A stretch of DNA of 64,000 nt, taken from assembly GCA_965204345.1 (NCBI GenBank), contig OZ241981.1, positions 160,001-224,000 on the forward strand. The letters are read 5' to 3'. Origin of the DNA: Nitrosopumilus sp. Lineage in GTDB: Archaea > Thermoproteota > Nitrososphaeria > Nitrososphaerales > Nitrosopumilaceae. A model generated the notes under the pieces. The model was given only the letters and a program-made list of their open reading frames with translations, was not told the DNA's origin and made no database searches. The position numbers and the translations under genes were made by a program. The stretch's first letter is position 1, and every line of letters begins with the position of its first letter. Positions 1,753 through 33,812 of this stretch are shown piece after piece.

Positions 1753-3995
1753 TTGAATTTAAAAGTAACATTGCCGATGATAATTTTCTCACTAGTCCTC
1801 CTGTTTGCATATCCTTTAGATTCTGCATCCTAGACTGATGATGAGGATGCACAGCTTGCAGTGCCAGGCAATCTTATCCCGGCTGAGAATACATTAGGTT
1901 CTGTTGCAAGTGTGGATGTACCACCCAAGTTTGATGGCGGCTTTTATGGCAAAATCCAGGCCTCATATCTGAGGTACCCCAAGATGGCGACTATGGGGTA
2001 CATGACGGCACGCGATACTATGATGTCCTAATTATAGTGGCCAGAAGTGATGGTATAGATGCAGATGAGACAGCGCGCAAGAACAAGGATGCAATAGTAC
2101 AGAGACTTGATCTTCTTGGCGCACGTAACATAGCATCTGCAGAGTCACTCTCATTTGTGACTGCATCCATCCCAGTTGCAGACGTTCTGGGACTCTCACT
2201 TTATGACGAGGTATATGCCATGGGAGATGGTGAAATTCCCGTGACTCTGGAGATTGATACGGCTACGGGAACCGTACATGCAACTCCCGATGAGATTCAT
2301 ACTGCGACTGGCACAAATCTTGATGGCAGTGGAGTTGTTGTGGCAATCATTGACAGAGGCATCAACCACGATATCGCATTTATGGGCAGAATCGATGGGC
2401 GTGTAGAGTGCGATGATACGTGTGAGCCTGCAACTGCTGATACTGTGATCGGCGTTAATAGTACTAATCATCTTTCTCGTAATTTTACATCCCATGGTAC
2501 GCATATAGCCCAAATCCTTGCCGCATCAGGACTGCCTGCTCATAACGGCATTGCCCCTGGTGTAAAACTTTTGGATGCCTCAATTACCAGGCACAGTGTA
2601 GATGACGATAACAACCGTACCTTCATTAGTGCAAACAGAAATGACGTGGCACATGCCCTTGACTGGTCTCTCAAAAAAGGAGCCGACATGGCAGTCATGA
2701 GTTTTGGTTTTGGAATCTGCAGTGGAGATTATGGAAAGACAACCAACCTCATCACAAATGAGGCAGTTGACAAGGGAATGGTTCTAGTATCATCTGCAGG
2801 AAACAGGGGCATAATTTATGGAGCGCCAAACCAGCCAGTTTATCATCTATATTCTGATATGTTTTGTATATGCAATAATGGCATAATTTATGGAGCGCCA
2901 AACCAGCCAGTTTATCAGTCTATAACTCATCTCGGATGCGGACACAATGAAATTACCGTAGGCGGAATAAATGATCGTGGTCAAACAATAACAAGGGCAG
3001 ATTTTTCAGGCATGGGTCCCGTACCCGGAACAGTCCTGCTAAAGCCTGAGATAGTTGCACCTGCACATCATATTCAGACACTGGACAATGTTGCAGAAGC
3101 TGACACTTTTAGTCCTCGGTCCGGAACCAGCCTTGCTGCTCCCCAGGCAAGTGCAACTGCTGCCCTGTTGCTACAGGCAAAACCTGATCTGACCCCAGTT
3201 GAGATAAAGACAATACTTCTTCTTGGGGCTGACTGGCAGGGTCCAATCCCTTGCACGTCTGCACAGTATGAAAAAAACAATTCCACCGACAACTGTTCTC
3301 ATGCCAGACAGCCCTCGGATCCTTTTGAGGCAACCAATGTTGCATCCCTTGGAATACTAAACAATGTGGGCTTTGGCATACTAAACACAGCAGAGTCACT
3401 CAGGTATGCTCACAGTGAATCATCCCATGTAATGTCACACTATCTAAAGTCAGATACGCATACAAAGCAGTACGAGTTTGACGTACAGGACACATCAAAG
3501 CCAGTCAAAGTGATACTGTCATGGCTGGTTCATCCGCATGGCAGTATAACCGGACAGTTGACGACTAATGATACAGCAGTCCCTATTACCAATCTTGATT
3601 TTACAATATTGTCTCCGGATAATGCTACAATACAGGCAACATCATCCCACCAGACAAACGAGTTTGCAGTGTTTGCCCCCACTCTACTAGGAACATACAC
3701 CATAACAGTTAGCGGCTCTAACATTGATAACATAAACAAGCCTGTACAAAACTTTGCACTGGCAAGTACCAATCCTCTTACACTTGTAGGTGACAGTATA
3801 CTGGAGAGAAAAATAGAGAGATACAACTCTACACAAATCAGAATTACAGATATCACAGAAGACATTAAACAGTTAGAGCAAAAATTACAGGACAAAAAAG
3901 ACAATCTGGCAGAACTAGACTCGTTACTTTCCAAGCTTTATCTGCAAATTATAGAATTGGCCCCTGATGGTTACGAATTTCCATTCAAGGATTGA
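1753..3995 (+). pseudogene. S8 subtilisin-like serine protease; 5' end disrupted (TAG at 1831, frameshift ~1960), catalytic ORF 2037-3995 intact
   Basis: Triad motifs IIDRG, HGTH, GTSLAAP and oxyanion SAGN; signal peptide MNLKVTLPMIIFSLVLLFAYP from TTG 1753 lies in another frame and is stopped; C-terminal coiled coil. Confidence 0.8.
2808..2917. repeat. Repeat-spacer-repeat unit 1: 38-bp perfect direct repeat around 34-bp unique insert
   Basis: GGCATAATTTATGGAGCGCCAAACCAGCCAGTTTATCA at 2808-2845 and 2880-2917. Confidence 0.95.
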
Positions 3996-4409
3996 ATCTT
4001 TTATTTAATGTATGCAACAAGATAACAAATGCCTGATGCATCCAAACTACTGCATCCCGTGTTAATAGTTTGCAAAAATCAAAAATATGCCATAAATTAA
4101 ACTTAGCAAACAAGTTATTAGATTGATTATTGATATCTGCTGCCAACAGGTTATAGATGTCTAATGGTCCAAAGCAAAAATATCTGTGTTGGGAAAATGC
4201 CATCATGTGCTGTCAATCTTGCGCTGTTTCCAATTTTTCAACAGCAAGATGAATATCCTCTTGCAGTTTGCTGGCAAATTCAGGTGATCAATTCATCAAA
4301 ATTTGCCAGAACCAAGTAGAACAAGTGTGGAAAAAGGATCTCCAAATTCAGAGACCTAAAAATTGTCCCCTAAATTCAAAATAATCTGCTGCTGCTGCTG
4401 TTGATATGA

Positions 4410-4597
4410 ATCAAAATTGTATAAGGTAGTTGGTTGAATTTTGGAAATTATTGGTTAGCTGATCATTGGAACTTGACGGCAAAGTAGAAGAGACGATTTT
4501 CTCAGATATTTAATTATCAAAAAACCCCAAAGAAATGCAGTTTAGATACTTGAATTTGTGGTTTATGGCATGGAACACCAAAATTTGCCAGAACCTC
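4410..4597 (+). repeat. Degenerate intergenic repeat upstream of the giant gene (partner at ~12345-12530)
   Basis: Colinear shared blocks TTGAC.G.AAA, AAGAGACG.TTTTCT, AAAAA.CCCAAA, ATTTGTGG, TGGCAT..AACACCAAAA.TT..CAGAAC. Confidence 0.55.
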
Positions 4598-4621
4598 GTT
4601 AGCTATTATTAATAACATGGC

Positions 4622-7600
4622 ATGCCCACACTATCTATGGCCGGAATTGCAGTGTCTGGATTTTTGGTTTTGGTTGCCGTGATGATGATAATGGCAGTGA
4701 TGATGCCAGCACATGCTGCAACCTCGGACTCGCCACTTGACCAGCATCATGCAGGCATACCAATAGATGGGATTCAGTGCAATGACGGCAAGCTTTTGAT
4801 GGTGAACCTTGCAGGCAAGCCAGTTTGCGTAACTGGTGATTCTGCCATGAAATTAGGAGACGGGGGCAGCAGCGGCAGCAGCATATATGCCACGACGGCA
4901 CACACACCAGAAACATCCCAAAAAGCCAATGAACCTTTAAGTGAAAAGATCACAAGCCAGACAGACACGCATGTATTTACTGACAAAGAAAAGCAGATTA
5001 TCGCTGATTACAAGAAATCTTCAATATTATCATCACCTGGAATTCTTATACACAGTTATTCCTTAGATCTCTCAGAATCACCCAAGGTGGGCCAAACTGC
5101 TATGATAAACTTTACCGGTATCTACACTGATAATACAAATTTTGAGCCATACATGGAACCATTCACGCTAAAAGTATTTGCCAATCCTGGTGACAAAGTT
5201 TTGTTTCATGATGATGCAGTAACAAATGCAGGCTCTGATGATCCAACCATCTTTGTGCCATTTGATAATAAAGTCGGATATGTAGTAGATGAGCCCGTGC
5301 CGGGTAGGGCTTATACCGTGATGGTTACTGTAGAAATTCTAGAGGAGGGATTTATTGAAATTGACGCATTGCGCTTTGATTCTTTAGAATCCCGTGGCGG
5401 TGTCTACCTTGCAATATCTGATGAATATTCTATATCAGAAAATGAGTATATGGATGAGGGACACACATTTTTGGATCACATCATTTTAGCTAGGGCATCT
5501 AGTTCTGAATCTTTTGCACCTCAAGAAGATAGCGGACTTGGCAATGAAGCGAGGTCTGAGGATGAGATAGTTGATGAGGTTTTGACGGATAAAAGAGTAG
5601 CTGAAATATATGCCAACCACCTGCGACTTTTGGGTGAGATAGTTGTCAATGATATTGGCAAAGTCAATGACGATTTAATTGGATGGCTTGCTGATAAATC
5701 CCTTCCATTAGATGATGTAAAAATTATTTTGAGACACTCTAATTTCACGCAGGCGCAAGTAGATGATGTAATGGAGAGATACGAGGCAGATTATACTGGT
5801 CCCCCGGATATGACGGATGGTGAAGCAACAGCAGCAGCAGCAGCAACAACAGTAGTAGCAGCAGCAGCAACAACAACAACAACAACAGCAGATGGCTCCC
5901 CCACAGATACCGCTGCTGCCCCAGCATTCCCCGTAGCTGCAACTCAGGAGGCGTCTGTTGGTGCAGCAGAAGACTCTTCTTCCAACACTTTTTCCATTGA
6001 AGGCACCGTATCTGCTCAACTTTATCTTTCCCGCACCACGCAACCCATCAACGGGATAGAAGTCTGTGCCTATGATCAACTTGGATCTACCCGTAGTGCA
6101 TTGACTGTATTGCTTACAACTGAGGGTGAAGATGCCTGCACATTTACATCCAACAGGGGAGAATATCGCATAGATTCTATCCAAAATGATGATCCTGATG
6201 ATGAATCAAATGTTGATCTAGTTATCAGAGTTAGTTCCAGGGGTTCAAATGATTTAGTCGTGCATGGTATATCTGGTGTTTATATAGAGTCATCTACCAG
6301 AGTTTTGAACTTTAGTGATGATACAAGAATGTTTGATTTTGTATTGAACGGCCGTGATGCAAGAGCATCTGGTATAATCAATGCAATCTCTGATGGCCGT
6401 GATTTTTTTAGTCATCACGGTATTCCTCCTGAGGAGCTTACTGTAAAGTGGGAGTATCGTAGACTTGCTAGTGTTTTTCCAGACTATACCCGTAACAATG
6501 CTGGATATATACTATCTGCGAACACCATATTTCTTAGCAGTTTTCCTTCTATCGCTGATAATGCTTTACACAAAGATCTCATATTGCATGAATTTGGCCA
6601 CTATATTATGGATATACAAGGTGTATTTCCATTCCTGCTGCGTTGTTACACTGATCTAAACAATGATGGTGATTTTGATGATATCGGTGAGACATCTCAT
6701 TATCTTCAACACCCAACTAATCGTACATGTGCATGGACAGAAGGTTGGGCTAATTTTGTTCCTAATTTAGTTACCAATTCGTCAAGTTTCGATAGTACCC
6801 CTTTTGGTATTATTAATTTGGAGCAAGACAGACAACAGTTAACTACTAATAACTTTATAGATTTTTTACCCGTAGATGACTTTGATCTTATTGGAGAACT
6901 CGTTGAAGGACAGGTAGCCGGAGCGCTATGGGATATCAAAGATCATAACGTTGATGAAATATTTGACAATTTAGAACAAAGCAGTAACGGTACTAACTTA
7001 GATAACCTGCAATTAGGCGATGATGAAATTATTGATGTATTTAAGAATGGAAGATATCATAATTTTAGAGATTTCTATGCTGCATGGGAAGATACAGAAT
7101 ATGATTCTTCATCTGACATTATGAGACTTCACCACATGAACTTTGCAATCCCAAACGATCTACCCCCGCCATCAAACATAGTGACTGACAGTTTTAACAC
7201 GCTTGACAATTGGAGTCAATCTGGCGCCTCTTGTTCGGTTCGCATCTCTGAGATTTGTTTTAACACGCTTGACCATTGGAGTCAATCTGACAATGACATG
7301 TGGGAGATAAATAGTGCCCACAAAACCATTCCAGATTCTGCCAGCGACAATACGGTGGCAACATCTAGCAACTGTGGTTCCGCTTGTTTTATTACACTTA
7401 ACCAGCCACTAGACATAAGAGAGCCTCTTGTAGTATCCTTTGATAGATTTGTTGATAGGAGAATTAACTCAGATGAAGGTCTGTATGTGCAGTACATGAC
7501 AGACTCTAGATGGGTGACACTGGCACAATATACTGGTATGAATGGGAATAATACCGACAACTGGCACTCTGAAGCCCTGACACTTAGCCTACGTGATCAA

Positions 7601-10600
7601 TCACAGACATTACTGCGATTTGTGGCAGACTCAAGCGGAGACAATGAATTCGTAGAGATTGATAATTTTAACATCTCGCCACTACCATTCACATTTACAG
7701 CCGGATTTACAACCGAATTCGTCATTACTCTGTATTTCCCTGTAGGACATGATACTAATTTTACAGCAAGTGATTTTAGCCTGTCTGAGGGAGCAATCAA
7801 CTCTATTAGTGTTAGTCGCAATGGCGAAATATTGCGCATGTTTACATCAGGCATTCCATATAGTACGCCAGTTACAGTAACCTATGTTGGTTCTGATTTT
7901 GGTTTTGATGGCAGTGATTCACAGTCACGCCCCACAGCCACCGTAACCAACTTCGGAAGGCCAGATAGATCAACCTTTGCTGATATCACTTTGCGTAACG
8001 GAGAGACCCGTACTGTAAGCGTGTCTGCACCCAATGCCGACCATGGACCAGTTTCATGGGACCTATTAGAAGCTCCAGACTTTGTCAGCATATCCCGTAC
8101 TGGTAATGGTACGGCAGACGTTATCATCTCTCCGCATAACGCCACCGTTGGCACTTATCTTGTTCGGGTATTCGCGGAGGTTGTCTCATTTTCTGGTCGG
8201 TCAATAGATATTCATGTAACTATTGACGACGGCGACGACAATACTGACCCGCCAGATACCACAAACCCTGTAATTACTGCTCCTGCTGATCTCACTGTAG
8301 AGGCTACCGACATTCGTACACCTGTGAATACTGGTACGGCATCAGCTGCAGACAATTCAGGTCCAAGCCCTGACATAACTCACGACGCACCACCAGACAA
8401 TTTCCCACTTGGCCCCACAACAGTTACATGGACTGCCACAGATGCTGCAGGAAACACAGCTACTGCAACACAGACGATAACCGTACAAGACACAACACCG
8501 CCTGCAATACAAAAGCCTGAAGATATTACAGAAGAGGCTACCTCATCACTAACTGCAATACAGCTGGCAGACCCCACAGTAACAGATATCTTTCCTTTTA
8601 CCATAAATAGCAACGCAACTGCATCGTTTCCTCTGGGTGATACCATAATCGCATGGACTGCCACTGACGAATCTAGGAATATCTCTACAACAACTAGTAC
8701 GGTAACCCTAGTGGATACCACTCCTCCCACAATAGTACAGCCTGCACCAATAACTGTGGATGCCACAGCAGAACTTACACCCGTATCAATAAGCGCGCCA
8801 GCTGCAACTGACACGGTGGACTCAGGCGTTGTTGTTGCTGTAACTGACAGTAATACTGCATCATTTGCCGTTGGAACACACAACGTGGTATGGACTGCCA
8901 CAGATGATTCAGGAAATACCGCAACTCTCACACAGACAGTTACTGTCAGGGATGCAGTCCCAACAGACCCTCCAGACAATCCTGATACCGTTACCCTAAC
9001 CGTCTCTGTAGCTACAACTGCAGGTGATCTCACCAACCTTGCTACGGTACCATTTACGGCAACATTCAACAAGGATGTTGTCTTTGACCTAGGTGACATT
9101 ACAGTAACTGGTACTGCAAATGACGGCAATCCCACAGCATCCAACCTTGGCAGAACAGGCAGTATCTACACCTTTGATGTGGCACGCGGCTCCACAGACG
9201 GAACCGTGACCGTATCCATAGATGCAAACGCGCTAACAGACTCTGCAGGCAACCCCAACACTGCATCTGCTCCAGTTACCGTCACCATAGACACCCTTGC
9301 CCCGGCAGTCTCTGTAACTTCGTCTGCAGGCAGCCGCACCGGACTTGATACGGTACCATTTACAGTAGAATTTAACGAAGACGTTGAGAACTTTGTCCTA
9401 GATGACATTACAGTGACAGGCGATGCCAACGGTGGAACCCTTGCAGCAACCGGCTTTGAGACAGTTGATGCCCGCACATACACCTTTAACGTTGCAGGCA
9501 TATCCTCAGACGGAACCGTAACTGTATCAGTTGCAGCAGATGTGGCAGCAGACCTTGCAGGCAACCCCAACACCGCATCTGCCCCAGTTACCGTCACCGT
9601 AGACACCACAGTCCCATCAGTATCACTGGACACAACTGCTGCTGATCCTACCAACTCTGAGGTCATACCATTTACTGCAATCTTTAGCGGCAATGTCACA
9701 GGATTTGAGCGGTCTGACATCGTTGTGGCAATTGACGGAACCCAGGTATCTAACTCTGAGATTAGTCTTGACCTTGGAGGGGAAAATTCCGTTGTTGTGT
9801 CAATTGGCAGTACACAGGCATCAGATAGCCTGATAACTGCCTTTAATGTAATTAATGGCACCCATTACAACTTTGCAGTCACACACGGGATCACCACAGA
9901 TGGCAAGCTAGCAGTAAGCATACCTGATGGTGTGGTGGCAGGGGGCAACACGGGTGCCGTACATACTATTACGGTGGACATGGTAAACCCATCCGTATCT
10001 ATCACGCCTGCTGATGGCACCACCATTACTGGTGATGACCCTGTAACGTTTACTGCAACATTTGATGAGGACGTTGAGAACTTTGAGCTGGATGACATTA
10101 CAATAGCGGGCACTGCCAATGGCGGCACCCCCACAGCATCCAACATTAATGGAGAAGGCAGTGTCTACACCTTTAATGTGGCACGCGGCTCCACAGACGG
10201 AACAGTAACCGTATCAATAGGTGCAGGTATGGCAGCCGACCTTGCAGGCAATCCCAATGAGGCATCTAATTCAGTTACCGTCACCATCAGCACCACAGGA
10301 GATGAGATTGAGGCAGATATCCCCTCTGGAGGTGATGGTGGCGTAGTGACATATGAGCCATCCTCAAATCTGATCACCCTCAACGTGGTATCTGACACAT
10401 TGCCTGACACAATTATTGCCACTGATGGCCAGCTGCTTGACTTTAATGCCACCCCCACGTTTGCTGATGATGCTGCAAGCGGAGTAAAGAGTGTGAGAAT
10501 TTCTGATTCTACAACTGAGGTTATCACTGATGTCTCTGATTCCCAAACTGTATCTGTCACTTATCCAGCAGGTATAGTTGTAAACGGTTCATCAAATGAT

Positions 10601-12295
10601 TGGAGTGGCACCATTGCCGTTCCAACCCTTGTTACTGCTGGCACTGCTGTTGATCCTCCAGCCTCAAATGACGAGATAGGACTGGCATTCTCAGTCGGTG
10701 ATGGCAACACCAGATTAACATTTGATCAGGCAGTCAGGTTACTCTTGCCTGGCCAGGCAGACCATGAGGGAGCCTTTTTCTCAGGAGAGGATACAGATGG
10801 CAACGTGATATCACGATCACTGGTTGTGTGTCCGTTTGTTCCTGTCAATCAGACTACTGCCAATGACAATATTGGAGCTGGCACTGCGTTGGAATCCTGT
10901 TTTGTTCGTGATGCTCCTGATATGATCATCTGGACCACGCACTTTAGCTCATTTGGCTCATTCTCTACGGTTCCTGTAGACCCTACACCATCCACACCTT
11001 CTAGTAGCCGCAGTAGTAGTGGTGGCGGTGGCGGTGGTGGCGGTGGCGGTGGCGGTGGTGGCGGTGGCGGTACCTCCTCCTCCTCCTTCAGCGGCTCATC
11101 TGCTGCAAACAATGCCTCCGAAGCTGTTTTGTACGACGTACAGTGGGATGTCTGTGAGGCAAACACAATCAACGTAATAGCTGGTCCTGTAACTGACAGT
11201 CTCTCTGTAAAGCTTAGAACCAACGCAGGCATAATCACGGCAGAACGCTCTGATGAGCAGCCCTATACTGGAAGAATCTCATTTGATGCAAGCCTCTCAC
11301 CAAACGAGTCATTTGTACGCGTACATGTGGAAAATATCGCAGCAAGGGGAATATCAACTGATTCAAAGTCATTTAACCTCACCGAGTGTTCTGGTTCTGT
11401 ATCTGTAAACACATACGAGTTATCATCATCGCCTGTTATTACCGGTGGCAGTGCAGATGTAACACCTGATCTGCCATCCAAAAAAGCGGATTTCTCAGAT
11501 GACATTATCATGCCAGGCCCCATCCAAGTACAAACGCCTGACATAATACGTGAGTTCCTCAACGACTTTGCAGATATTACCAATACTAACACGGGTATGA
11601 AACTCACTGAATTCCAGACACTGCAATCAAACCCTGACAGATATGCCAAGACCGTCCTGGGAATCAGCGGACAGACAGTTACCACAGTTGCATTGGCAGA
11701 CAGACCCATCTCAGAGGAGAGTAACAACAACAGTGCAAACCTCTTCTTGCAAATCTCATCCAATGGTGAGAAGGTCAACTCCATGAGGGGCGTTCTCTTG
11801 GGAGGTGACACCATTGAGATTGTGGCAGGAGACAAAAGTAAGATCATCGTTCCAACATCTGCAGAAATTGCAATTGCATCTGGGGATGCAAACGTGACAG
11901 TATCTCAAAAATCAAGCATGAAAATTAATGACGGATCAACGCAGGTTGATCTGCCAGACGTGCTCAGAGAATTCCTAAATACCAACATTGAATTTACAAA
12001 CGAGGATACCGGTGAGGCACTAACGCAATACGTGGTGTTGCAGTCAGTACCAGATGTGTTTGCAGAAAAAGAACTTGGAATCTCAGGACAAACCGTAACT
12101 ATCATCGCGTTCCCAGACAGGTATGGCAGAGCAGACAGCAATGATGACCTGAATGTCTTTGTACAGTTTACGCACACTGATGAGCAGGTCAACTCTTTGA
12201 GAGGCATCCAGCAGGGCGGCAACGCAATCAGCGTTAGCACCAACGGCGCTGAGCAGGGAACACTGACACAGACAGTAGAGATTCCGCTGGGCTAG
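4622..12295 (+). CDS. Giant secreted/surface protein: Zn-metallopeptidase domain + HYR repeats + Ig-like repeats + S-layer-like domain + duplicated C-terminal domain
   Basis: Signal peptide; LHEFGH plus downstream WTEGWA; three HYR units (FPLG.T.V.WTATD.AGN); four Ig-like units (PFT..F..DV..F...DITV); IWTTHFS; poly-Gly linker; two 'PD..REFLN...LGISGQTVT' repeats. Confidence 0.85.
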   Translation: MPTLSMAGIAVSGFLVLVAVMMIMAVMMPAHAATSDSPLDQHHAGIPIDGIQCNDGKLLMVNLAGKPVCVTGDSAMKLGDGGSSGSSIYATTAHTPETSQKANEPLSEKITSQTDTHVFTDKEKQIIADYKKSSILSSPGILIHSYSLDLSESPKVGQTAMINFTGIYTDNTNFEPYMEPFTLKVFANPGDKVLFHDDAVTNAGSDDPTIFVPFDNKVGYVVDEPVPGRAYTVMVTVEILEEGFIEIDALRFDSLESRGGVYLAISDEYSISENEYMDEGHTFLDHIILARASSSESFAPQEDSGLGNEARSEDEIVDEVLTDKRVAEIYANHLRLLGEIVVNDIGKVNDDLIGWLADKSLPLDDVKIILRHSNFTQAQVDDVMERYEADYTGPPDMTDGEATAAAAATTVVAAAATTTTTTADGSPTDTAAAPAFPVAATQEASVGAAEDSSSNTFSIEGTVSAQLYLSRTTQPINGIEVCAYDQLGSTRSALTVLLTTEGEDACTFTSNRGEYRIDSIQNDDPDDESNVDLVIRVSSRGSNDLVVHGISGVYIESSTRVLNFSDDTRMFDFVLNGRDARASGIINAISDGRDFFSHHGIPPEELTVKWEYRRLASVFPDYTRNNAGYILSANTIFLSSFPSIADNALHKDLILHEFGHYIMDIQGVFPFLLRCYTDLNNDGDFDDIGETSHYLQHPTNRTCAWTEGWANFVPNLVTNSSSFDSTPFGIINLEQDRQQLTTNNFIDFLPVDDFDLIGELVEGQVAGALWDIKDHNVDEIFDNLEQSSNGTNLDNLQLGDDEIIDVFKNGRYHNFRDFYAAWEDTEYDSSSDIMRLHHMNFAIPNDLPPPSNIVTDSFNTLDNWSQSGASCSVRISEICFNTLDHWSQSDNDMWEINSAHKTIPDSASDNTVATSSNCGSACFITLNQPLDIREPLVVSFDRFVDRRINSDEGLYVQYMTDSRWVTLAQYTGMNGNNTDNWHSEALTLSLRDQSQTLLRFVADSSGDNEFVEIDNFNISPLPFTFTAGFTTEFVITLYFPVGHDTNFTASDFSLSEGAINSISVSRNGEILRMFTSGIPYSTPVTVTYVGSDFGFDGSDSQSRPTATVTNFGRPDRSTFADITLRNGETRTVSVSAPNADHGPVSWDLLEAPDFVSISRTGNGTADVIISPHNATVGTYLVRVFAEVVSFSGRSIDIHVTIDDGDDNTDPPDTTNPVITAPADLTVEATDIRTPVNTGTASAADNSGPSPDITHDAPPDNFPLGPTTVTWTATDAAGNTATATQTITVQDTTPPAIQKPEDITEEATSSLTAIQLADPTVTDIFPFTINSNATASFPLGDTIIAWTATDESRNISTTTSTVTLVDTTPPTIVQPAPITVDATAELTPVSISAPAATDTVDSGVVVAVTDSNTASFAVGTHNVVWTATDDSGNTATLTQTVTVRDAVPTDPPDNPDTVTLTVSVATTAGDLTNLATVPFTATFNKDVVFDLGDITVTGTANDGNPTASNLGRTGSIYTFDVARGSTDGTVTVSIDANALTDSAGNPNTASAPVTVTIDTLAPAVSVTSSAGSRTGLDTVPFTVEFNEDVENFVLDDITVTGDANGGTLAATGFETVDARTYTFNVAGISSDGTVTVSVAADVAADLAGNPNTASAPVTVTVDTTVPSVSLDTTAADPTNSEVIPFTAIFSGNVTGFERSDIVVAIDGTQVSNSEISLDLGGENSVVVSIGSTQASDSLITAFNVINGTHYNFAVTHGITTDGKLAVSIPDGVVAGGNTGAVHTITVDMVNPSVSITPADGTTITGDDPVTFTATFDEDVENFELDDITIAGTANGGTPTASNINGEGSVYTFNVARGSTDGTVTVSIGAGMAADLAGNPNEASNSVTVTISTTGDEIEADIPSGGDGGVVTYEPSSNLITLNVVSDTLPDTIIATDGQLLDFNATPTFADDAASGVKSVRISDSTTEVITDVSDSQTVSVTYPAGIVVNGSSNDWSGTIAVPTLVTAGTAVDPPASNDEIGLAFSVGDGNTRLTFDQAVRLLLPGQADHEGAFFSGEDTDGNVISRSLVVCPFVPVNQTTANDNIGAGTALESCFVRDAPDMIIWTTHFSSFGSFSTVPVDPTPSTPSSSRSSSGGGGGGGGGGGGGGGGGTSSSSFSGSSAANNASEAVLYDVQWDVCEANTINVIAGPVTDSLSVKLRTNAGIITAERSDEQPYTGRISFDASLSPNESFVRVHVENIAARGISTDSKSFNLTECSGSVSVNTYELSSSPVITGGSADVTPDLPSKKADFSDDIIMPGPIQVQTPDIIREFLNDFADITNTNTGMKLTEFQTLQSNPDRYAKTVLGISGQTVTTVALADRPISEESNNNSANLFLQISSNGEKVNSMRGVLLGGDTIEIVAGDKSKIIVPTSAEIAIASGDANVTVSQKSSMKINDGSTQVDLPDVLREFLNTNIEFTNEDTGEALTQYVVLQSVPDVFAEKELGISGQTVTIIAFPDRYGRADSNDDLNVFVQFTHTDEQVNSLRGIQQGGNAISVSTNGAEQGTLTQTVEIPLG
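5824..5890 (+). repeat. In-frame GCA/ACA/GTA microsatellite (poly-Ala/Thr)
   Basis: Trinucleotide runs encoding ATAAAAATTVVAAAATTTTTTA. Confidence 0.9.
7191..7289. repeat. Repeat-spacer-repeat unit 2: 33-bp direct repeat (1 mismatch) around 33-bp unique insert
   Basis: GTTTTAACACGCTTGAC(A/C)ATTGGAGTCAATCTG at 7191-7223 and 7257-7289. Confidence 0.95.
11021..11088 (+). repeat. GGT/GGC poly-Gly and TCC poly-Ser linker
   Basis: Run of Gly codons followed by Ser codons. Confidence 0.9.
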
Positions 12296-12344: not shown

Positions 12345-12530
12345 ATTATACTGCAAGGCAGTTTTTGGGTCAGGTAAATTCTGACTAGCGAAATTTGACA
12401 GTAAACTGCAAAAGAGACGGTTTTCTTAAAAAAAGAATTGCATATTCTGGCCATTAAAAAATCCCAAAAGAGGTGCAATACTAGATCTCTCAGATTTGTG
12501 GCATAAAACACCAAAACTTATCAGAACTCC
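12345..12530 (+). repeat. Degenerate intergenic repeat downstream of the giant gene (partner at ~4410-4597)
   Basis: Same colinear blocks as the upstream copy. Confidence 0.55.
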
Positions 12531-12862
12531 AACTCACCCCTTGAGAATTAACACTGGGAATACCGCACGCTCATCACTTTTTTTAGAAATCCTTGGAAAC
12601 CTAGAAAAGTTAGACCCAGAGTAATAATGCATCCGTCATATTCAATAGGTGCGATGAGAATGATATGCAGACATTGAAGAAAGTCCTCGGATACCTGCTT
12701 GCAAGAACCCATCGACAAGATGGCTACACATCAAAATGACACCAAGATTGAACAGTGTACATAAGACAAACTTTGTCTGCACACCAACCAATTGCATGTC
12801 TGACTTTTGCATGTTTTCTCGATTCTGCTTAGTTGAAATACTGGCTTTTATCTGTCATAAAC

Positions 12863-13881: not shown

Positions 13882-14682
13882 TTACAGCACTGTCTGTCTC
13901 TTGAGACTTTTTGTAAATGATGCAATTTTTGCTTCCAGCTTTTTTTGAGGTGTCTTTTCAATTAACTCTAGATATGCACTTCCAACAATTACTGCATCTG
14001 CACCTGCGTTGACGTATCTTCTTACATCCTGCGGCGTTGAAACTCCAAACCCGATTCCTATTGGAATGTCTCCCTTGGTCTGTCTTTTGATTTGTCTTAT
14101 TGCATCTAGCGTGTATTTCTTGATTCTGGTTTTTACCCCGGTTGTACCAAACACTGCAACCAAGTACAAAAATCCGGATGTTGCTTTGGATATTTTTTGA
14201 ATTCTTGCCTTCTCTGTATTTGGAGATATTAGAAATATGGTATCTGTCTTGTCTTTTGCGGCGTTTAGATACTCTTCTGACTCTTCAATGGACATGTCAG
14301 GCAGGATAAATCCGTCAATGCCTGCATCTTTGGCATCTGTGACGAATTTTGCATATCCCTTGTGGTATAGGATGTTTGTATATGTCATTAGCACTAGTGG
14401 GATGTCTGTCTCTTTTCTAATCTTCTTGACAAGATTGAAAAACTTTGCAATTTCCGTTCCTTTTTCTAGTGATACCGTGCTTGCATTTTGAATAACCGGT
14501 CCGTCTGCTAGAGGATCTGAAAACGGAAAACCCAATTCAATAATGTCTGCTCCCCCCTTTATGAGCCCCCTCACTGCAGATAACGTGGATTTTTCATTGG
14601 GAAATCCTGCCATGATGTATGAGACTAGGGCCTTTTCATTTTTTGACTCCAATTCCGTAAATTTTTCCTTAATTCTTGACAT
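13882..14682 (-). CDS. trpA: Tryptophan synthase alpha chain
   Basis: [33 protein letters not shown]. Confidence 0.97.
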
Positions 14683-19749: not shown

Positions 19750-19947
19750 ATGATTGCCATGCCAGGGGTAAATCAAACAATCATGCAAGACATGCTGATT
19801 CTAAAAAAGCAAACAGCATCCACTACAGTAAGCAAGGTTGAATGCTATGTTTGTGGCAAGGGATTGCAGGACGGTCATTCCATTACTGCAAGAACGCTGC
19901 CAAATGGAATAGCCTTGTTCTGTGATGTCCACTATTATCAACAATAA
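19750..19947 (+). CDS. Small Zn-binding protein (CxxC...CxxH); C-terminus altered by insertion
   Basis: CYVC ... FCDVH. Confidence 0.7.
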   Translation: MIAMPGVNQTIMQDMLILKKQTASTTVSKVECYVCGKGLQDGHSITARTLPNGIALFCDVHYYQQ

Positions 19948-20007
19948 ATGCAAGGATACAGAGCTAATGGCCAAATGGAATAGCCTTGTTCTGTGATGTC
20001 CACTATT
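19899..20007. repeat. Repeat-spacer-repeat unit 3: 38-bp perfect direct repeat around 33-bp unique insert
   Basis: GCCAAATGGAATAGCCTTGTTCTGTGATGTCCACTATT at 19899-19936 and 19970-20007. Confidence 0.95.
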
Positions 20008-22648
20008 TGCTGCAATAGCTAAAAACATCAAAGAATTCCTTTGCACCATTTTTAGTCAATTCCTTATTTTTTGTTTGGCAATAGTTTGTAGTAAATGTGC
20101 ACTTTGGACAACCTCCCCAAACTTTTTGGTCTGCCTGTGTTTTATCTGCTGGACAGTCACAATCCCTTAACAAAGAAAGCCCTGCGGCCAATATTTTTTC
20201 AAATTCATCATAGATTATTTTACTGCACCCATTAAATCCGTCTGATGAGTTATCATAAAGGTAAATCACTCCATTTTCATAGTATGCATCAATATCACTT
20301 GATTCTGATTTTGTTAAAATTTTGCTTGCGTTCACTAGCATGTGTGTGATGGTATGCATCCTGGGATCACCGGCTATGGGATTTTTGGAGTCTGCTGCTG
20401 CCTTTGATATGAATTCTGCTGGTATCGTTACACTGGTTGCCGAGTGTCTTGATTTCCAATGAAAATTCCTCCATCCCGATATGCTGCTGCCATTATGCCT
20501 GGTAAATTTATCTGCTGATTCATTATAGTTTCCCTTCATGTATCCTGTAATTGTTCTATCCAGTGAAATTATTCCATACCGCAAAGATATTTTTTTATTC
20601 TTTACATTAATCTCCCTGTGCCTTGTTTTGCCTTCTGATGTCTGAATAACTGCCGTTCTGAGAATTGGAAATGTCTTCTTTCCCCTCTCACTTGATCTTA
20701 TCAGATATGCCCTTGCCCCATTTTGTGATTTTATTAACGAGCTTACTTCATAATTCTGCTTGTTAAAATGATACATTGCCTTTTGATGTAACTGATAGTA
20801 CCCTGCAGGTACTGCCCTGGTTCCAATTTTCATTGAATTATGGTATATGGAAATCTCGCCTGATGCCCCTCGCAAATTAACACTGTTTGCAAAATCAAAA
20901 AATTGGGATTTGTCTGATGTTGCCGCTGCCTCATCTTCAATTTCGACGGATTCTGCATGCCTCTCTGCGATTATCGGATTCCTCTTGTTGATTGGAACGA
21001 TGTGATCCTGTTTTAGATACTCATCAATATGGCGTGCAAAATAATGACAAGCTGCATCTTCTGGATCAAAGACGCAGATGGCATATGATTCCTGTCCCAT
21101 GCGTCCTGCCCTTCCGATTCTTTGAACAAACGAGTCAAATTCGTTTTTGAATGCAGAAATTACTACATCCACATGCCCTATGTCAATTCCCAACTCTAGC
21201 GTCGGCGTACATGACAAAACATCCAAGTCTCCTGCCTTCATTTGGGACTCGTACATTTTTCTGTCCCTTTGATCCAGCCCTCCTCTGTGAATCTGAATTC
21301 GTATCCCTTTGTTTGCTGTTTCCATATTTGATGCCAGAAATTCTGCGTCATTGTGTGAATTGCTAAAAACCAGCTGTGTTGAATTATTCCTGTGGCAGAT
21401 GGATGATAGCATTTCCATGGTTGTTCTTTGCCTGAACTTCCTAGGCATGATAAAAAACATGTGCATGTTTTGTTTTCGCCGAAACTTACTTTTGATATAC
21501 CTAAACGAGTCCTCAGGCAGATCAAACATGCTGGAAAAAAATTCCTTTGAATTATCCAGCGTTGCAGACGAGCCTACAAACTGCACCTTGCCCATGAATC
21601 TTTTCATTCTTTTTAGAACATGATATACGTTTGATCCGTGAAAACTCGTATACGAATGTGCTTCATCCATGACAATTATTTTTGCATTTTTGAATAACTC
21701 GTTCCATTTTTTATCCTGCAGTATTAAATGATAATTAATAAAATCAAAATTCGTTGCAATGATTAGAGCCTTTTTGCCAGACTCCAAAATCACCATGTCT
21801 TTGTATTCTGTACTCTGGCCTCCGTGAATTGAATATGCTGAAACCCTGTCTCCAAGATCACATTTTTGAATCAGGTCGGATATTTTTGAGATCTGATCAT
21901 CAATTAACGCATTTGATGGATATACCAGCAATGTGAATACTCCTGATGCTGAATTTTCTGTGATTTTTTGCAGTATTGGGATTGCAAATGCTTCTGTTTT
22001 TCCAGATCCTGTGGGCGCTGAAATTATTGTATCCCCTCCACTTAGAATTGCTTTGATGGATTCCTCCTGAAATGGGAGTACCCCTGCAAAGCCATATTTT
22101 TCTAGACCCTTTATGATATTCTCAGATAAGATGTCTCTGAGATTTGCAATTGGAATTTTTTCAGACTCTGAAGCAACTAATCGCTCATAATGGATTAATG
22201 CCAGGGATTCCTCTTTGTGGCCTTGAATTATCTCTCTAATTATGTAGTTATTATCAACTAGTGATTTTGGAATCTTGCTAATATCAAAAAGAATATCCTG
22301 AGGAATTAAAATTTTGGGTGCCGGATCTTTAGTTTTTGTTTTCACATGTTTTTTAATTTCATCTGGAAAGTATTCTGCTGATTCGCCGGAGACTGTGCAT
22401 TGATGGGGCTCATCTGTTCTTGAATCAATGGGGATAAATTTTCCACTATCTGATTTGAACCTCTCATCCCAGTAAATCTCTGCCCCGCATCCTTTGGAAC
22501 ACTGTTTTGTTCTTCCTGAATAGTTTACTCCATATGTTGGAGCTTTTACCATGATTTTTTCAGGATTGCACTTGGGACATATTCTCGGAGATCCTACATC
22601 CTCATGGCTTTGAACCAGTCTTGTATCACAGTCAAAACAAAATTTCAT
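20003..22648 (-). CDS. DEAH-box SF2 helicase with C-terminal DUF1998 Zn domain (Hrq1/MrfA-like) and N-terminal Zn ribbons
   Basis: APTGSGKT, DEAH, SAT, TLELGIDIG, QRIGRAGR, C-terminal CDC...GCPKC. Confidence 0.92.
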   Translation of the reverse strand: MKFCFDCDTRLVQSHEDVGSPRICPKCNPEKIMVKAPTYGVNYSGRTKQCSKGCGAEIYWDERFKSDSGKFIPIDSRTDEPHQCTVSGESAEYFPDEIKKHVKTKTKDPAPKILIPQDILFDISKIPKSLVDNNYIIREIIQGHKEESLALIHYERLVASESEKIPIANLRDILSENIIKGLEKYGFAGVLPFQEESIKAILSGGDTIISAPTGSGKTEAFAIPILQKITENSASGVFTLLVYPSNALIDDQISKISDLIQKCDLGDRVSAYSIHGGQSTEYKDMVILESGKKALIIATNFDFINYHLILQDKKWNELFKNAKIIVMDEAHSYTSFHGSNVYHVLKRMKRFMGKVQFVGSSATLDNSKEFFSSMFDLPEDSFRYIKSKFRRKQNMHMFFIMPRKFRQRTTMEMLSSICHRNNSTQLVFSNSHNDAEFLASNMETANKGIRIQIHRGGLDQRDRKMYESQMKAGDLDVLSCTPTLELGIDIGHVDVVISAFKNEFDSFVQRIGRAGRMGQESYAICVFDPEDAACHYFARHIDEYLKQDHIVPINKRNPIIAERHAESVEIEDEAAATSDKSQFFDFANSVNLRGASGEISIYHNSMKIGTRAVPAGYYQLHQKAMYHFNKQNYEVSSLIKSQNGARAYLIRSSERGKKTFPILRTAVIQTSEGKTRHREINVKNKKISLRYGIISLDRTITGYMKGNYNESADKFTRHNGSSISGWRNFHWKSRHSATSVTIPAEFISKAAADSKNPIAGDPRMHTITHMLVNASKILTKSESSDIDAYYENGVIYLYDNSSDGFNGCSKIIYDEFEKILAAGLSLLRDCDCPADKTQADQKVWGGCPKCTFTTNYCQTKNKELTKNGAKEFFDVFSYCSK

Positions 22649-26755: not shown

Positions 26756-26767
26756 TTTTTTTGATTC

Positions 26768-29450: not shown

Positions 29451-29469
29451 CTTTCCTCATTTATCCAAA

Positions 29470-31771: not shown

Positions 31772-31799
31772 GATTAGCAAAAAACCAGTCTAATGAATC

Positions 31800-31892
31800 A
31801 TGTCTGAAACTGCCAAAAGTGGTTTTGCAACCGAAGATCAAGTTGTAGATGAGTTTCGGAATTGGAGTAACAGTACACTGTTCAATTTTTAA
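31800..31892 (+). pseudogene. 5' fragment of a HinP1I-like type II restriction endonuclease
   Basis: MSETAKSGFATEDQVVDEFRNWS resembles the recalled HinP1I N-terminus (TAK.GF..E..I...F.NW); stops after 30 codons. Confidence 0.5.
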
Positions 31893-31894
31893 AT

Positions 31895-32389
31895 ATGACT
31901 GGTCACTTATCGTATCTGTTGATGATTGACCCCAGCATCACTATATCGGTCGTAGGGATTGGTTTGGCGTTATTATTATTTATAATTAATAGAAAGAATA
32001 AATCAGATTATGAGAAAACAATCAAGAGATCCATCAAAAAGACAATGCAGGAAGTCAACGTGATTTTTCAGCAGGTTTACATGTTTTCAAATGATTATGA
32101 CTATGACTCTGAAATGCCAACCAGACGGATAACTGGTTTCATGCGCACGTCTGCAATAAAGATTCATAATTATTCATTCATAATAACCCACAACTCCTCT
32201 CTGATTAATTTGAGTGATGATGAATCTAAAAACATAGATGTATTTTTGGCTATGGTGGACTGGTTTGTTGAGAACTATACCTTCTCAGACAATCCGCTGC
32301 CCAAACAAATTTCCAATTGGAAGATGAATCACAGAGAAGATCTTGGCAAGAACGCAACCAAAGTGGAAGAGATATCAGATATTTTTTAA
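31895..32389 (+). CDS. Hypothetical protein with N-terminal TM anchor
   Basis: ITISVVGIGLALLLFII followed by a helical domain. Confidence 0.7.
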   Translation: MTGHLSYLLMIDPSITISVVGIGLALLLFIINRKNKSDYEKTIKRSIKKTMQEVNVIFQQVYMFSNDYDYDSEMPTRRITGFMRTSAIKIHNYSFIITHNSSLINLSDDESKNIDVFLAMVDWFVENYTFSDNPLPKQISNWKMNHREDLGKNATKVEEISDIF

Positions 32390-32452
32390 AATATCTAATT
32401 CATCTTCGACATTTTTTTGGCCTGTTTAGACAACATTCTCTTGCTATGGCTC

Positions 32453-32721
32453 AAATTTATAATTACATTCTTTGCACTGACGCTACTGATTGCCAACATT
32501 AGGAATTTCTTGAAGGGTTTGAAACTGCAGAAATAATGTTTATGGAGAATAAAAAAAATTGGCATGCACCCTAAATTGGCTGAAAAAGAAGCATGCCGTA
32601 ACTCAATAAAACTGCTTAAATAACGAAAGCACATAGGGGTTAGTAATAACATGAAAAACATAACAAACAAAACAAAAACAATACTGTTTGCATCTCTGAT
32701 TGCCCAATGATATTGCCATTT
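32453..32721 (+). repeat. ~260-bp leader module, copy 2
   Basis: Match to 24342-24602. Confidence 0.9.
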
Positions 32722-33486
32722 AGCGGTATGGGAGTTGCAGAAGCAAAAGTAGATGAAATCAAATACACCAAATCAGAAATTGACAAATCCTTCAGAAATT
32801 CAGAAGGTTATGTTAGTTATGAAAACAAGAACAACCAGATGAAAGTAGATATAAATAAAATGATCGATGATGGCATTGAAAATAAAGATATAAAAATCAT
32901 GTCAGAGTGGGCAGAACTCCACAATAAAGTCATGATAGGACATATGAATGGAGATAAGGAAAAAACAGGTACTGCTTTGTTCGAAGCTGCAAATGGTCCT
33001 TTTAGCTATCTAGTAAATGCCAAAACAACAAAACTTGGATCAGTAGATGATAACATTAGTAATGTTTCATATGTTACACCTATTAGCTATTGGTCTTTAT
33101 CCGCATGCGGAATCACTTATGGCACTACTGAACATTCAGAACCACCTATCGAAATCTATCTTCATAGTTATCCTGATCTATCTTCTGCACAAACAGTAAT
33201 AGAAAATGATGGATATTATCAAGTGCAATGGCCTTGGATTGATTTTAATGATGGCGGAAAAGTTTATGCCAAAATAAACACAACAGGTTATGGTGATTGT
33301 ACTAGTGGCGAATTCAGAGATGAAAATCACATCTACGATGTATATAATGTCAAGGTCAACCATGTGTGGTATAAACCTGTTCTTAGTTTAGTACAGGTAA
33401 ACGAACCAAATCCTGATCTTGCTGCATATTCTGCACCAACATTTTGGTGGGATGTTTATGTTGCTACATGGCACTATGGCAACTAA
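32651..33486 (+). pseudogene. Secreted protein with frameshift inside the signal peptide (~32704); main ORF 32707-33486
   Basis: ATG 32651 gives MKNITNKTKTILFASLIAQ*; 'GCCCAATG' lacks one base relative to GCT GCA ATG of copy 1; continues MILPFSGM in another frame. Confidence 0.75.
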
Positions 33487-33512
33487 CCCCCTCTTTTCTT
33501 TTTTATTGAATC

Positions 33513-33773
33513 ATGAAAAAAATAATTAAAATCACGATAATCATTTTGAGTGTTATAGCATTTTTATTCTGTCTTCTTTTAATTGCCAATTATATTTTAT
33601 ACGAAACATGGGGCAGTAATGAGAATTTCTATATCCCACAAAACGGACAAAAAGTGAAATGTGATATTAATCTATTACAAAAACCTAGCAATTGCAGGAC
33701 TATAATTGATAATGAATTGACTGTGATACCAATTGAAGAATGGCCCAATCATGATATAAACCCCGAAAAATGA
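33513..33773 (+). CDS. Small membrane protein
   Basis: N-terminal TM helix, two Cys. Confidence 0.7.
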   Translation: MKKIIKITIIILSVIAFLFCLLLIANYILYETWGSNENFYIPQNGQKVKCDINLLQKPSNCRTIIDNELTVIPIEEWPNHDINPEK

Positions 33774-33812
33774 AACCATAATTAATAATGAATTGACTGT
33801 GATACCAATTGA
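33699..33812. repeat. Repeat-spacer-repeat unit 4: 38-bp direct repeat (2 mismatches; 35-bp core with 1) around 38-bp insert
   Basis: AC(T/C)ATAATT(G/A)ATAATGAATTGACTGTGATACCAATTGA at 33699-33736 and 33775-33812. Confidence 0.9.

Follow-up and report, generated by a model that had tools for sequence, protein, structure and literature searches.

Repeat-insert-repeat scars in the genome of a sponge-associated Nitrosopumilus: probable natural off-target integration by Cas1-Cas2

A genome-wide repeat scan of a sponge-associated, ammonia-oxidizing Nitrosopumilus sp. (G000; 2.12 Mb) identified 26 independent events in which a stretch of local sequence is present twice, with a short insert between the copies. 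The footprint of these scars, their target preference and their co-occurrence with a resident Cas1-Cas2 (with Cas4) make it probable that this complex produced them by natural off-target integration. The original prediction, made from four such units in the window (the 64,000-nt stretch of DNA analyzed), had read them in this way, and that reading is supported, with corrections to the length of the duplication and the origin of the inserts.

Units in the window and across the genome

A repeat search of the whole window recovered all four predicted units (2808, 7191, 19899 and 33699), and their repeats were mutually unrelated, as had been described. The positions are listed in Table 1. The predicted effects on reading frames also held, with loci 1 and 2 in frame in mid-gene and loci 3 (period 71) and 4 (period 76) at the 3' ends of genes. 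At locus 3 the 3' ends of the 65-aa ORF and the convergent helicase gene overlap, and the helicase gene takes its stop and part of its final codon from the last 5 nt of the second copy. The duplication at this locus, if extended, reaches 48 nt with 4 mismatches. DNA homology with relatives in the genus runs through the first copy of locus 3, and the matches end at window positions 19934-19950. Exact repeats of 33-38 nt lying within 80 nt cannot have originated by chance.

Table 1. Features of the window related to the repeat-insert-repeat units (window positions).
Feature	Position	Strand	Length and identity	Description
Locus 1, copies	2808-2845 / 2880-2917		38 nt, 100% identical	Period 72; insert 34 nt
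Locus 1, insert	2846-2879			Stop-free in frame; with second copy adds 24 residues
Locus 1, host gene	2037-3995	+	652 aa	Peptidase_S8; unit in frame
Locus 2, copies	7191-7223 / 7257-7289		33 nt, 1 mismatch	Period 66; insert 33 nt
Locus 2, insert	7224-7256		33 bp	In frame
Locus 2, host gene	4622-12295	+	2557 aa	HYR/Big_12 surface protein; unit in frame
Paralogous empty site	12411-12576		89.7% identity	For scar in inverted element copies C1:1765720 and C1:1848731
Protospacer of scar C1:1385280	14508-14541		34-bp insert, 33/34 identical	Single copy; homology ends at insert ends
Locus 3, copies	19899-19936 / 19970-20007		38 nt, exact	Period 71; insert 33 nt
Locus 3, insert	19937-19969		33 bp	Gives 65-aa ORF its last three codons and stop
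Locus 3, small ORF	19750-19947	+	65 aa	Zinc-ribbon-like; first copy encodes C-terminus
Locus 3, convergent gene	20003-22648	-	881 aa	DEAD/MZB helicase
Locus 4, copies	33699-33736 / 33775-33812		38 nt, 2 mismatches	Period 76; insert 38 nt
Locus 4, insert	33737-33774		38 bp	As read from the sequence, C-terminus changes from ...IPIER to ...IPIEEWPNHDINPEK, each followed by a stop
Locus 4, ORF	33513-33773	+	86 aa	First copy near its 3' end

Among the 26 events, target duplications were 31-42 bp (mode 38), inserts were 30-41 bp (median 35) and unrelated to the duplicated sequence, and periods were 66-76 bp (mode 72). The sharp genome-wide peak that the original prediction had called for is therefore present, and its 38-bp duplication stands as the mode and not as a fixed length. 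The two copies were identical in 20 of the 26 events and carried mismatches in the other 6. When isolated local repeat pairs of length at least 24 and period 40-130 were counted across the genome, 28 of 66 had periods of 70-74. The repeats of separate loci were unrelated to one another and, over most of their length, to the repeat of the CRISPR array, and shared recognition by Cas6 or an effector is therefore unlikely. Multi-copy elements carry identical scars, one set in a 3598-bp sequence repeated three times in tandem and others in inverted element copies, of which there are two pairs. One of the 26, the event at 718060, is doubtful and sits within a 26-nt tandem repeat.

More familiar structures were considered and rejected. 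A genuine CRISPR array has a leader and at least three copies of a repeat that it shares with the array beside the cas genes, whereas each scar consists of two copies of one unique local sequence. A transposon or IS element would be expected to have terminal inverted repeats, to come with a transposase or with related copies of its insert, and to leave a duplication of 2-15 bp; here the 30-41-bp inserts are unique and mutually unrelated, and the duplications are 31-42 bp. Tandem duplication or a protein repeat was rejected because the inserts have no match to their flanks, save for the doubtful event at 718060.

Empty sites, sources of the inserts and spanning contigs

True orthologs were just ~70-78% identical and uninformative for intergenic parts, and the empty sites used here are paralogs from the same genome. 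Ungapped paralogous empty sites were found for 6 independent events (162808, 167191, 499885, 1406775, 1765720 and 1947301). Alignment of locus 1 with its paralog (C1:1702372-1702529) leaves a clean gap of 72 nt, and all 9 paralog matches to the reconstructed empty site of this locus were ungapped. Exactly 66 nt are missing from the paralog of locus 2 (C1:1708703-1708923). The original prediction had asked for empty sites to be confirmed in orthologs. Judged from the alignments, the units are insertions and not ancestral sequence.

Comparison of the inserts with the genome agreed with the original prediction that they are not locally templated. The companion claim, that they are foreign, did not stand in full; at least 5 of the 26 copy genes of the organism itself or of a close strain, and for 21 of the 26 no source was found. 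Each of the 5 corresponds along its full length to a gene that occurs once, at another place in the genome (34/36, 34/35, 30/33, 33/34 and 30/30 positions), and the homology ends at the insert boundaries. Their identity to the source is 91-100%, which places the source in the organism's own genome or that of a close strain. Between the sourced inserts and the genomic DNA they match, 7 of 168 positions disagree, compared to 1 of 189 between the two copies of the duplicated targets. One of the sources, at 14508-14541, falls in a minus-strand open frame of 268 aa in the window, putatively tryptophan synthase alpha by the look of its sequence. No common flank or PAM was visible in the small sample of 5 protospacers and 1 array spacer; cas4 is intact. 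The insert of locus 1 had no second copy elsewhere in the genome and, among 151 genus genomes searched with up to 3 mismatches, was found in G000 alone. Likewise, none of the 150 other genus genomes had the insert of locus 2, which was found only in G000 of the 151. The four window inserts had 0 exact matches in viral_contigs.

The original prediction had also asked for spanning data, and these were obtained for part of the loci. Logan contigs bridged locus 2 in each of the 4 runs used, which stem from 4 studies (3 gapless and 1 with one gap). Loci 1 and 3 are unbridgeable by such contigs because their perfect 38-nt repeats exceed the 31-letter word from which the contigs are built. The X4 and X10 contigs end at 19928, within the first copy of locus 3.

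The CRISPR locus, target preference and selection

The Cas1-like integrase that the original prediction had to suppose is encoded in the genome, ~1.66 Mb from the window, where cas1-cas2-cas4 and a six-repeat array occupy C1:1886277-1888668. Periods in the array (C1:1886277-1886668) are 72, 68, 70, 72 and 72. The conserved core of the repeat is 34 nt, or 37 nt counting three semi-conserved flanking positions, and the spacers are 31-38 bp, depending on which of these lengths is taken. The period mode of 72 is common to scars and array, and the insert length of the scars (30-41 bp) fits the host spacer length, whereas the match between duplication and repeat length is approximate and not exact. 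The leader-proximal unit of the array is itself an off-register insertion, with a 40-nt duplication, of which 13 nt belong to the older spacer and 27 nt to the repeat. Its spacer, the newest, matches C1:1209418-1209449 at 100% identity. Both cas2 and cas4, which adjoin the array, are intact. A search of the genome for two effector families found no gene of either.

The only Cas1 match in G000 (230 bits) contains 2 TAA stops, both inside a scar. This scar is a perfect 38/34/38 unit that splits cas1 and duplicates VIKIKPYQKHYA. With 72 nt subtracted, cas1 becomes an open frame of 337 aa, and the unit is the sole lesion in the gene. Today cas1 is a pseudogene, and the events must therefore predate its loss.

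The ends of the duplicated targets resemble the ends of the array repeat. Over 10 + 10 positions, the mean match was 8.0, compared to 6.64 for random genomic windows, and none of 20,000 resamples of such windows reached 8.0. Shuffled repeat ends (5,000) gave a mean of 6.74, and 0.46% of them reached 8.0. Termini of the form G...AG were present in 5 of the 26 events against an expected 2.2% (P = 2.5e-4); starting with G, taken alone, was a weak single-base signal (P = 0.08). The first copy of locus 2, for example, has GTTTTAAC at its start and ATCTG at its end, resembling the ends of the array repeat.

All 5 events inside intact ORFs of at least 290 aa had periods divisible by 3 (72, 66, 69, 72 and 75). 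Events with periods of 70, 71, 74 and 76 were located at gene ends, in intergenic DNA or in short ORFs. The keeping of the frame in long genes indicates that selection has acted.

Origin of the scars and what they may mean

If the resident complex made the scars, it would have captured DNA pieces of ~33-37 bp, the source being in some cases the host chromosome or a very closely related strain, and attached the two 3' ends of each piece to an ordinary chromosomal site, one end per strand, with a stagger of ~35-38 bp. Sites whose ends resemble those of the CRISPR repeat (5' G...(C/G)AG 3') would be favored. Gap repair would then duplicate the target and yield target-insert-target. In a genome without an effector of either searched family, spacers derived from self would do no harm, and selection would spare tolerable hits, namely those in frame in long genes, at 3' gene ends, in intergenic DNA, in redundant paralogs and in mobile elements. 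One integration would have struck cas1 itself. We infer a recent burst of events that was terminated by this hit. On the matter of length, a strict ruler predicts a single value, and the spread of the duplications over 31-42 bp, with a mode of 38 that exceeds the 34-nt core, speaks against this explanation.

Relatives were compared with one script for all (5 genomes, partly sampled and kin to one another). G002 has neither cas1 nor cas2, and 1 candidate scar was found in 0.8 Mb sampled. G007 likewise lacks both genes, with 0 clean candidates in 0.4 Mb sampled. At the syntenic locus G018 has cas2, a 6-repeat array of period 72-74 and a Cas_GSU0053 gene, and no cas1; ~5-7 older scars of period 71-74 were found in 0.8 Mb sampled. 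In G017, cas1 is intact and the array has 58 repeats of 30 nt, yet just 2 independent scars were found in 0.8 Mb, and these are 35-36 bp rather than 30 bp. Scars in these relatives thus do not track intact cas1, being few in G017 and present without cas1 in G018. A Cas1 match was found in 16 of 41 related genomes, with several matches in some, and the Cas1 genes differ.

These comparisons bear on whether a different integrase carried out the same kind of integration, either one from a second adaptation module with 37-38-nt repeats, since lost or acting in trans from a plasmid or virus, or a ruler-type enzyme as yet unknown. The variety of Cas1 genes among relatives would allow for it, as would a duplication mode longer than the resident core, the misfit of the G017 scars to their 30-nt array and the scars of G018 in the absence of cas1. 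However, the target ends resemble those of the resident repeat itself, the resident array bears the same off-register error, G000 has one Cas1 match only, and G018 keeps a syntenic remnant locus with a matching period; we consider another integrase unlikely. Template switching during replication or repair, in which microhomology would let a strand copy ~35 nt from a distant template and return upstream of the point it left, so that local sequence was duplicated, appears very unlikely. Inserts do copy distant genomic DNA, and event 1947301 has microhomologies of 4 and 5 nt at its two junctions, but junction homology is 0-1 nt in 4 of the 5 sourced events. Broad lengths would also be expected from such a mechanism, whereas insert and duplication are narrowly peaked and the 28 of 66 pairs fall in one 5-nt period bin. 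The likeness of the target ends to the CRISPR repeat would be left unexplained.

An assembly or sequencing artifact, such as de Bruijn graph loops or gap-filling errors at k-1 overlaps, is scarcely credible here. Several duplications are exactly 38 nt, which is k-1 for k=39, one of the default word sizes of MEGAHIT, and perfect repeats are not bridged by the 31-mer contigs. Nevertheless, locus 2 is bridged in every one of the independent runs, the duplications vary in length and 6 of the 26 have mismatches, and inserts differ from their sources by up to 3 bases; multi-copy elements carry the same scars, and the frame filter in long genes points to selection. It is also highly improbable that the units are diverged ordinary tandem duplications or protein repeats, or functional mini-CRISPR arrays under selection. 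True protein repeats of relatives also have periods of 72-75, as in the LRR-like 75-nt units of G007 and G018, and the start of the locus 3 insert resembles the sequence past the second copy (6/10 or 6/11, depending on register). Against these readings, the inserts are unlike their flanks, the source of 5 lies at other places in the genome, and paralogs provide clean empty sites. Mini-arrays are further opposed by repeats that are unrelated across loci and by the lack of an effector gene of the two families searched.

Integration by the resident Cas1-Cas2 can also be set beside known systems. Shmakov et al. (CRISPR J 2020) reportedly proposed that isolated or orphan mini-arrays arise de novo via off-target integration. 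As there, off-target integration would here seed repeat-spacer-repeat units away from cas genes; however, those sites resemble the cognate repeat and were counted as arrays, whereas these are ordinary coding targets that resemble the repeat at their ends only. Nivala, Shipman and Church (Nat Microbiol 2018) are said to have found that off-target integration by Cas1-Cas2 gives 'neo-CRISPR' loci in E. coli. The scars share with those loci a spacer-length insert, a repeat-length duplication of a non-CRISPR target, self-derived spacers and target sites with features of the native repeat (in E. coli, of the leader-repeat). Unlike in E. coli, the events here are natural and fixed; a single archaeal genome has 26 of them, many lie in genes, with a frame filter, and cas1 itself was struck. 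The E. coli work relied on laboratory over-production of the integrase, and the natural cases were only circumstantial and from two other species (10.1101/148544). Cas1-Cas2 of P. furiosus integrates in vitro at non-CRISPR sites sharing repeat features, and repeat sequence and spacing jointly determine the second cut (PMC6698737). That study used a plasmid in vitro, whereas the scars described here lie in the chromosome of a natural population and are more loosely spaced (31-42 bp). Among the open-access papers searched, we came across none that describes dozens of such scars in a wild genome.

A fuller history is possible, and we put it forward tentatively. The adaptation-only CRISPR module of a sponge symbiont may, after loss of its effector genes, have gone through a recent promiscuous phase in which at least 26 spacers were inserted, part of them from co-resident close strains. 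This phase may have added in-frame peptides to a subtilase and a giant surface protein, created new C-termini and uncoupled two overlapping gene ends before it was ended by the module's own hit on cas1.

The natural frequency, cost and yield of off-target spacer integration are little documented, and this genome offers a natural example. Its 26 sites amount to a natural data set on how sequence and spacing govern the specificity of an archaeal integrase. CRISPR finders may label such units as 'questionable arrays', and annotation calls for caution. The scars suggest that self DNA is sampled once interference is gone, that such insertions survive within expressed genes if the frame is kept, and that an integrase can wreck its own gene, which would be a route to the death of a CRISPR system. 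If the fuller history is true, CRISPR adaptation would act in nature as a self-limiting endogenous mutagen that works by insertion and gives rise to new protein features.

Window scars and their empty forms

The original prediction described four repeat-insert-repeat units in the window, and a direct-repeat search of its whole length recovered all four (see table). The 33-38 nt enclosed at each locus bear no relation to the flanks. An exact scan of viral_contigs gave 0 matches for each of these inserts, and the inserts of loci 1 and 2, compared with 151 genus genomes at up to 3 mismatches, matched the genome under study (G000) alone. At locus 3, the 3' ends of the 65-aa ORF and the helicase gene formerly overlapped, and through the duplication the two convergent genes now have a separate copy each of the end they used to share. 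DNA homology with relatives continues there through the first copy. A diverged tandem duplication, prompted by a 48-nt extension, was considered for this locus and set aside because the remaining insert is unrelated.

Scars in the window (window coordinates) and elsewhere in the genome (genome coordinates), with the sources of captured inserts
Feature	Position	Duplication and period	Context or source	Insert identity to source
Locus 1	2808/2880	38 nt, copies identical; period 72	inside a 652-aa subtilase gene, frame kept	
Locus 2	7191/7257	33 nt, one mismatch; period 66	inside a 2557-aa HYR/Big_12 surface-protein gene, frame kept	
Locus 3	19899/19970	38 nt, exact; period 71	where a 65-aa ORF and a convergent 881-aa DEAD/MZB helicase gene end	
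Locus 4	33699/33775	38 nt, two mismatches; period 76	3' end of an 86-aa ORF	
Scar with source	330574		1275229	34/36
Scar with source	486267		262049	34/35
Scar with source	500922		964067	30/33
Scar with source	1385280		174508 (window 14508-14541)	33/34
Scar with source	1947301		1288999	30/30, plus 4 and 5 nt junction homology
Weaker isolated pairs	110352, 238940, 253451, 301804, 905180, 1236292, 1400070, 1761137, 1974847			

We rebuilt the empty form of each site (flank, one copy, flank) and used it as a query against the same genome. Paralogues were taken for this comparison because the nearest species representatives have only ~70-78% DNA identity; the gene-end logic of locus 3 is all that is readable in those orthologues. 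The expectation that empty sites should exist was borne out at locus 1, where nine paralogues matched full-length and ungapped (best 95.4%, C1:1702332-1702569; C1 is the contig that holds the window, at 160001-224000), and at locus 2, with one full-length ungapped paralogue at 89.6% identity (C1:1708703-1708923). Four more events likewise had full-length ungapped paralogue matches, and in the pairwise alignments the gap is clean, measuring exactly 72 nt at locus 1 and 66 nt at locus 2. These comparisons of sequence indicate that the units are insertions.

The subtilase gene (2037-3995) belongs to a family of ~10 paralogues (e.g. C1:1702332, C7:3020) with 79-95% DNA identity, and summed contig depth over 2500-3673 in metagenome runs is ~5-11 times that of the adjoining single-copy region. 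The 2557-aa HYR/Big_12 gene carries AGC/AAC triplet runs (22.7 copies) and GGTGGC units at 5824-5892 and 11019-11087, and contigs from metagenome runs appear cut at these runs. Elsewhere in the window, a perfect 15-nt tandem repeat, TGAGCTGCCCACTGC, is present in 2.6 copies at 37491-37529, within ORF 37147-38511.

A genome-wide class of scars

The genome (2.12 Mb, 9 contigs, 38.7% G+C) yielded 66 isolated pairs in a local direct-repeat scan (length at least 24, period 40-130). A genome-wide peak in length had been anticipated, and 28 of the 66 pairs fall at period 70-74, compared to 1-6 in each other 5-nt bin. Twenty-six independent events with no more than 2 mismatches were retained. Left out were ~9 weaker isolated pairs (more than 2 mismatches, or a duplication of 24-29 nt), five rows from tandem arrays (412435, 805877, 946300, 946360, and 1671841), two from contig C5, the five that belong to the CRISPR array proper, and, for events present more than once, four further copies (1410373, 1413971, 1424895, and 1848731). 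In the 26 events the duplication is 31-42 nt long with a mode of 38, the insert 30-41 nt with a median of 35, and the period 66-76, with a period of 72 in eight, 71 in five, and 70 in five. Both copies are identical in 20 of the 26. The event at 718060, which sits in a 26-nt tandem repeat, is a doubtful member.

The prediction that events within genes keep the frame agreed with the wider set: all 5 events in intact ORFs of at least 290 codons have periods divisible by 3 (72, 66, 69, 72, and 75) and are stop-free, so that each lengthens its protein by 22-25 residues. Frame-breaking periods (70, 71, 74, and 76) were found at gene ends, in intergenic DNA, or in short ORFs.

Some events stand in particular surroundings. 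At C1:1406775-1414042, a 3598-bp unit occurs three times in tandem with the same 38/34/38 scar in each copy, so the scar predates the multiplication of the unit. Two scars separated by 3 nt lie at C1:486267-486486. The second of them, at C1:486377, duplicates the final 23 nt of the tRNA-Ser(CGA) gene (C1:486464-486547, minus strand) and 15 nt past it, and one complete gene is still present despite the scar. Paralogous regions (~76% identical) at C1:382764 and C1:1704438 have one scar each, at positions a few tens of nt apart, and may represent a local hot spot.

Whether the scars are real DNA was assessed with Logan contigs from four runs, each of a different study (2010-2024; sponge metagenomes and a labelled organism). 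Contigs bridged locus 2 in 4 of 4 runs, three without a gap and one with a single gap whose place was not seen. Loci 1 and 3, whose perfect repeats of 38 nt are longer than the contigs' 31-letter word, were unbridged; contigs of runs X4 and X10 end at 19928, inside the first copy of locus 3. At locus 1, a contig omitting 72 nt was found in runs X1, X4, and X10, with other differences and at 3-4 times the depth. A polymorphic empty allele was rejected for this contig, since the other differences and higher depth fit one of the ~9 paralogues. A k-1 assembly artefact, which the lengths 38 (39-1) and 28 (29-1) would suit, was discarded because of the bridging of locus 2 and the variation of duplications from 31 to 42 nt. 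It is also contradicted by mismatches in 6 of the 26 events, by inserts that differ from their sources, by multi-copy scars, and by the frame filter. Identical scars are shared by all three members of the 3598-bp tandem and by the members of two inverted element pairs, which argues for real, inherited DNA.

The CRISPR locus, captured DNA, and target preference

A Cas1-like integrase had been predicted, and one Cas1 match (230 bits) was found at C1:1887727-1888668 on the minus strand. Downstream are intact cas2 and cas4 genes and a six-repeat array (C1:1886277-1886668). The conserved core of its repeat measures 34 nt, and 37 nt when three semi-conserved positions beside it are included; the array periods of 72, 68, 70, 72, and 72 are comparable to the scar mode of 72. 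Two TAA stops interrupt the cas1 match; both belong to a 38/34/38 unit with perfect copies, through which the peptide VIKIKPYQKHYA occurs twice. With the 72 nt removed, the frame is open over 337 codons, so this unit is the sole cas1 lesion. The leader-proximal array unit (C1:1886549-1886660) is off-register, its 40-nt duplication comprising 13 nt of the prior spacer and 27 nt of repeat. The spacer of this unit matches a single-copy gene of the same genome (C1:1209418-1209449) at 100% identity and is thus self-targeting. The effectors Cas_GSU0053 and RAMP (PF09617 and PF03787) were unmatched in this genome, with the PF09617 control positive in 0 of 14 control genomes, and no effector gene was present among 10 ORFs scanned around the locus. 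By gene content, the locus looks adaptation-only.

When all inserts were searched by BLAST in the genome, 5 events had a full-length match elsewhere (see table), leaving 21 of 26 without a source. Insert ends coincide with the limits of source homology in all five; the sources are single-copy, and 4 of 5 lie inside open frames whose lengths range from 222 to over 900 codons. Between insert and source, 7 of 168 positions differ, compared to 1 of 189 between the paired target copies of the same events (Fisher P=0.03). This difference, from few events, hints that the donor DNA was that of a close relative and not the cell's own chromosome. No common motif that could be a PAM flanks the 5 protospacers and one array spacer, a sample too small for the purpose.

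For each duplicated target, the 10 nt at either end were compared with the array repeat's ends, and matches were counted on the better strand. The mean score was 8.0, compared to 6.64 for random genomic windows handled alike, and 0 of 20,000 resampled means reached 8.0. Shuffled repeat ends (5,000), used as a control for A+T richness, gave a mean of 6.74, with 0.46% reaching 8.0. A G start with an AG end, as in the repeat, was present in 5 of 26 targets (2.2% expected, P=2.5e-4); a G start alone was weak (P=0.08). A study of P. furiosus Cas1-Cas2 in vitro describes features common to off-target sites and repeats (PMC6698737); the resemblance of scar target ends to the array repeat is of this kind.

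Relatives and the origin of the scars

The same repeat-scan script was run on parts of four genus relatives. G018 (0.8 Mb sampled, no cas1 match) had ~5-7 scars of period 71-74, mostly with 1-3 mismatches. Its CRISPR locus (C1:250077-256035 of that genome) adjoins an aquaporin (MIP) gene, as in G000, and contains cas2, a Cas_GSU0053 (type I-G/I-U-like) gene, and a six-repeat array of period 72-74, without cas1; where that gene would be expected, ~1.6 kb is taken up by ORFs with no Pfam family. G017 (0.8 Mb sampled), with an intact cas1 and a 58-repeat array of 30-nt repeats, had two independent scars of 35-36 nt. Neither cas1 nor cas2 was found in G002 or G007; the former (0.8 Mb sampled) had one candidate (30/42, period 72), and the latter (0.4 Mb sampled) none besides 72-75-nt LRR-like protein repeats. 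In this small, non-independent sample, scars accompany present or past CRISPR loci. They do not track intact cas1, and the G017 scars mismatch its main array. G017 also holds one unit four times (C1:1086776, 1221667, 1305769, and 1318834 of that genome), with a 32-37-nt direct repeat beginning CTATTACGGCATCAGC and a 36-49-nt insert holding a run of 11-14 G. This unit may be a single scar carried around by a multi-copy element, or else a small element of another kind.

The footprint requires opposite-strand cuts ~36 bp apart and a supply of ~35-bp sharp-ended DNA pieces. To our knowledge, Cas1-Cas2 alone makes such a footprint; transposases duplicate targets of 2-15 bp and casposases ~14-15 bp. 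Off-target integration by the resident adaptation module is quite likely the origin of the scars, given the footprint, the presence of the machinery, the off-register error in the array, the target ends like the module's own repeat, and the hit in cas1. Against this origin, duplication length is loose, with a mode (38) above the repeat core, no PAM is visible at the few protospacers, and 21 inserts are unsourced.

Neo-CRISPR units made by off-target integration are known from E. coli over-producing Cas1-Cas2, and the natural cases given with that work, from two other species, are circumstantial, according to 10.1101/148544. In the open-access literature, we found no wild genome with dozens of such scars and none reported in sponge-associated ammonia oxidisers; a comparative paper on sponge-associated ammonia-oxidising archaea mentions arrays and cas genes only (PMC6697440). 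The genome under study would be an unusually rich natural case of known off-target integration. What it adds is an insertion into cas1 itself, a locus that looks adaptation-only, self protospacers placed on the genome, and insertions that survive in frame within protein genes.
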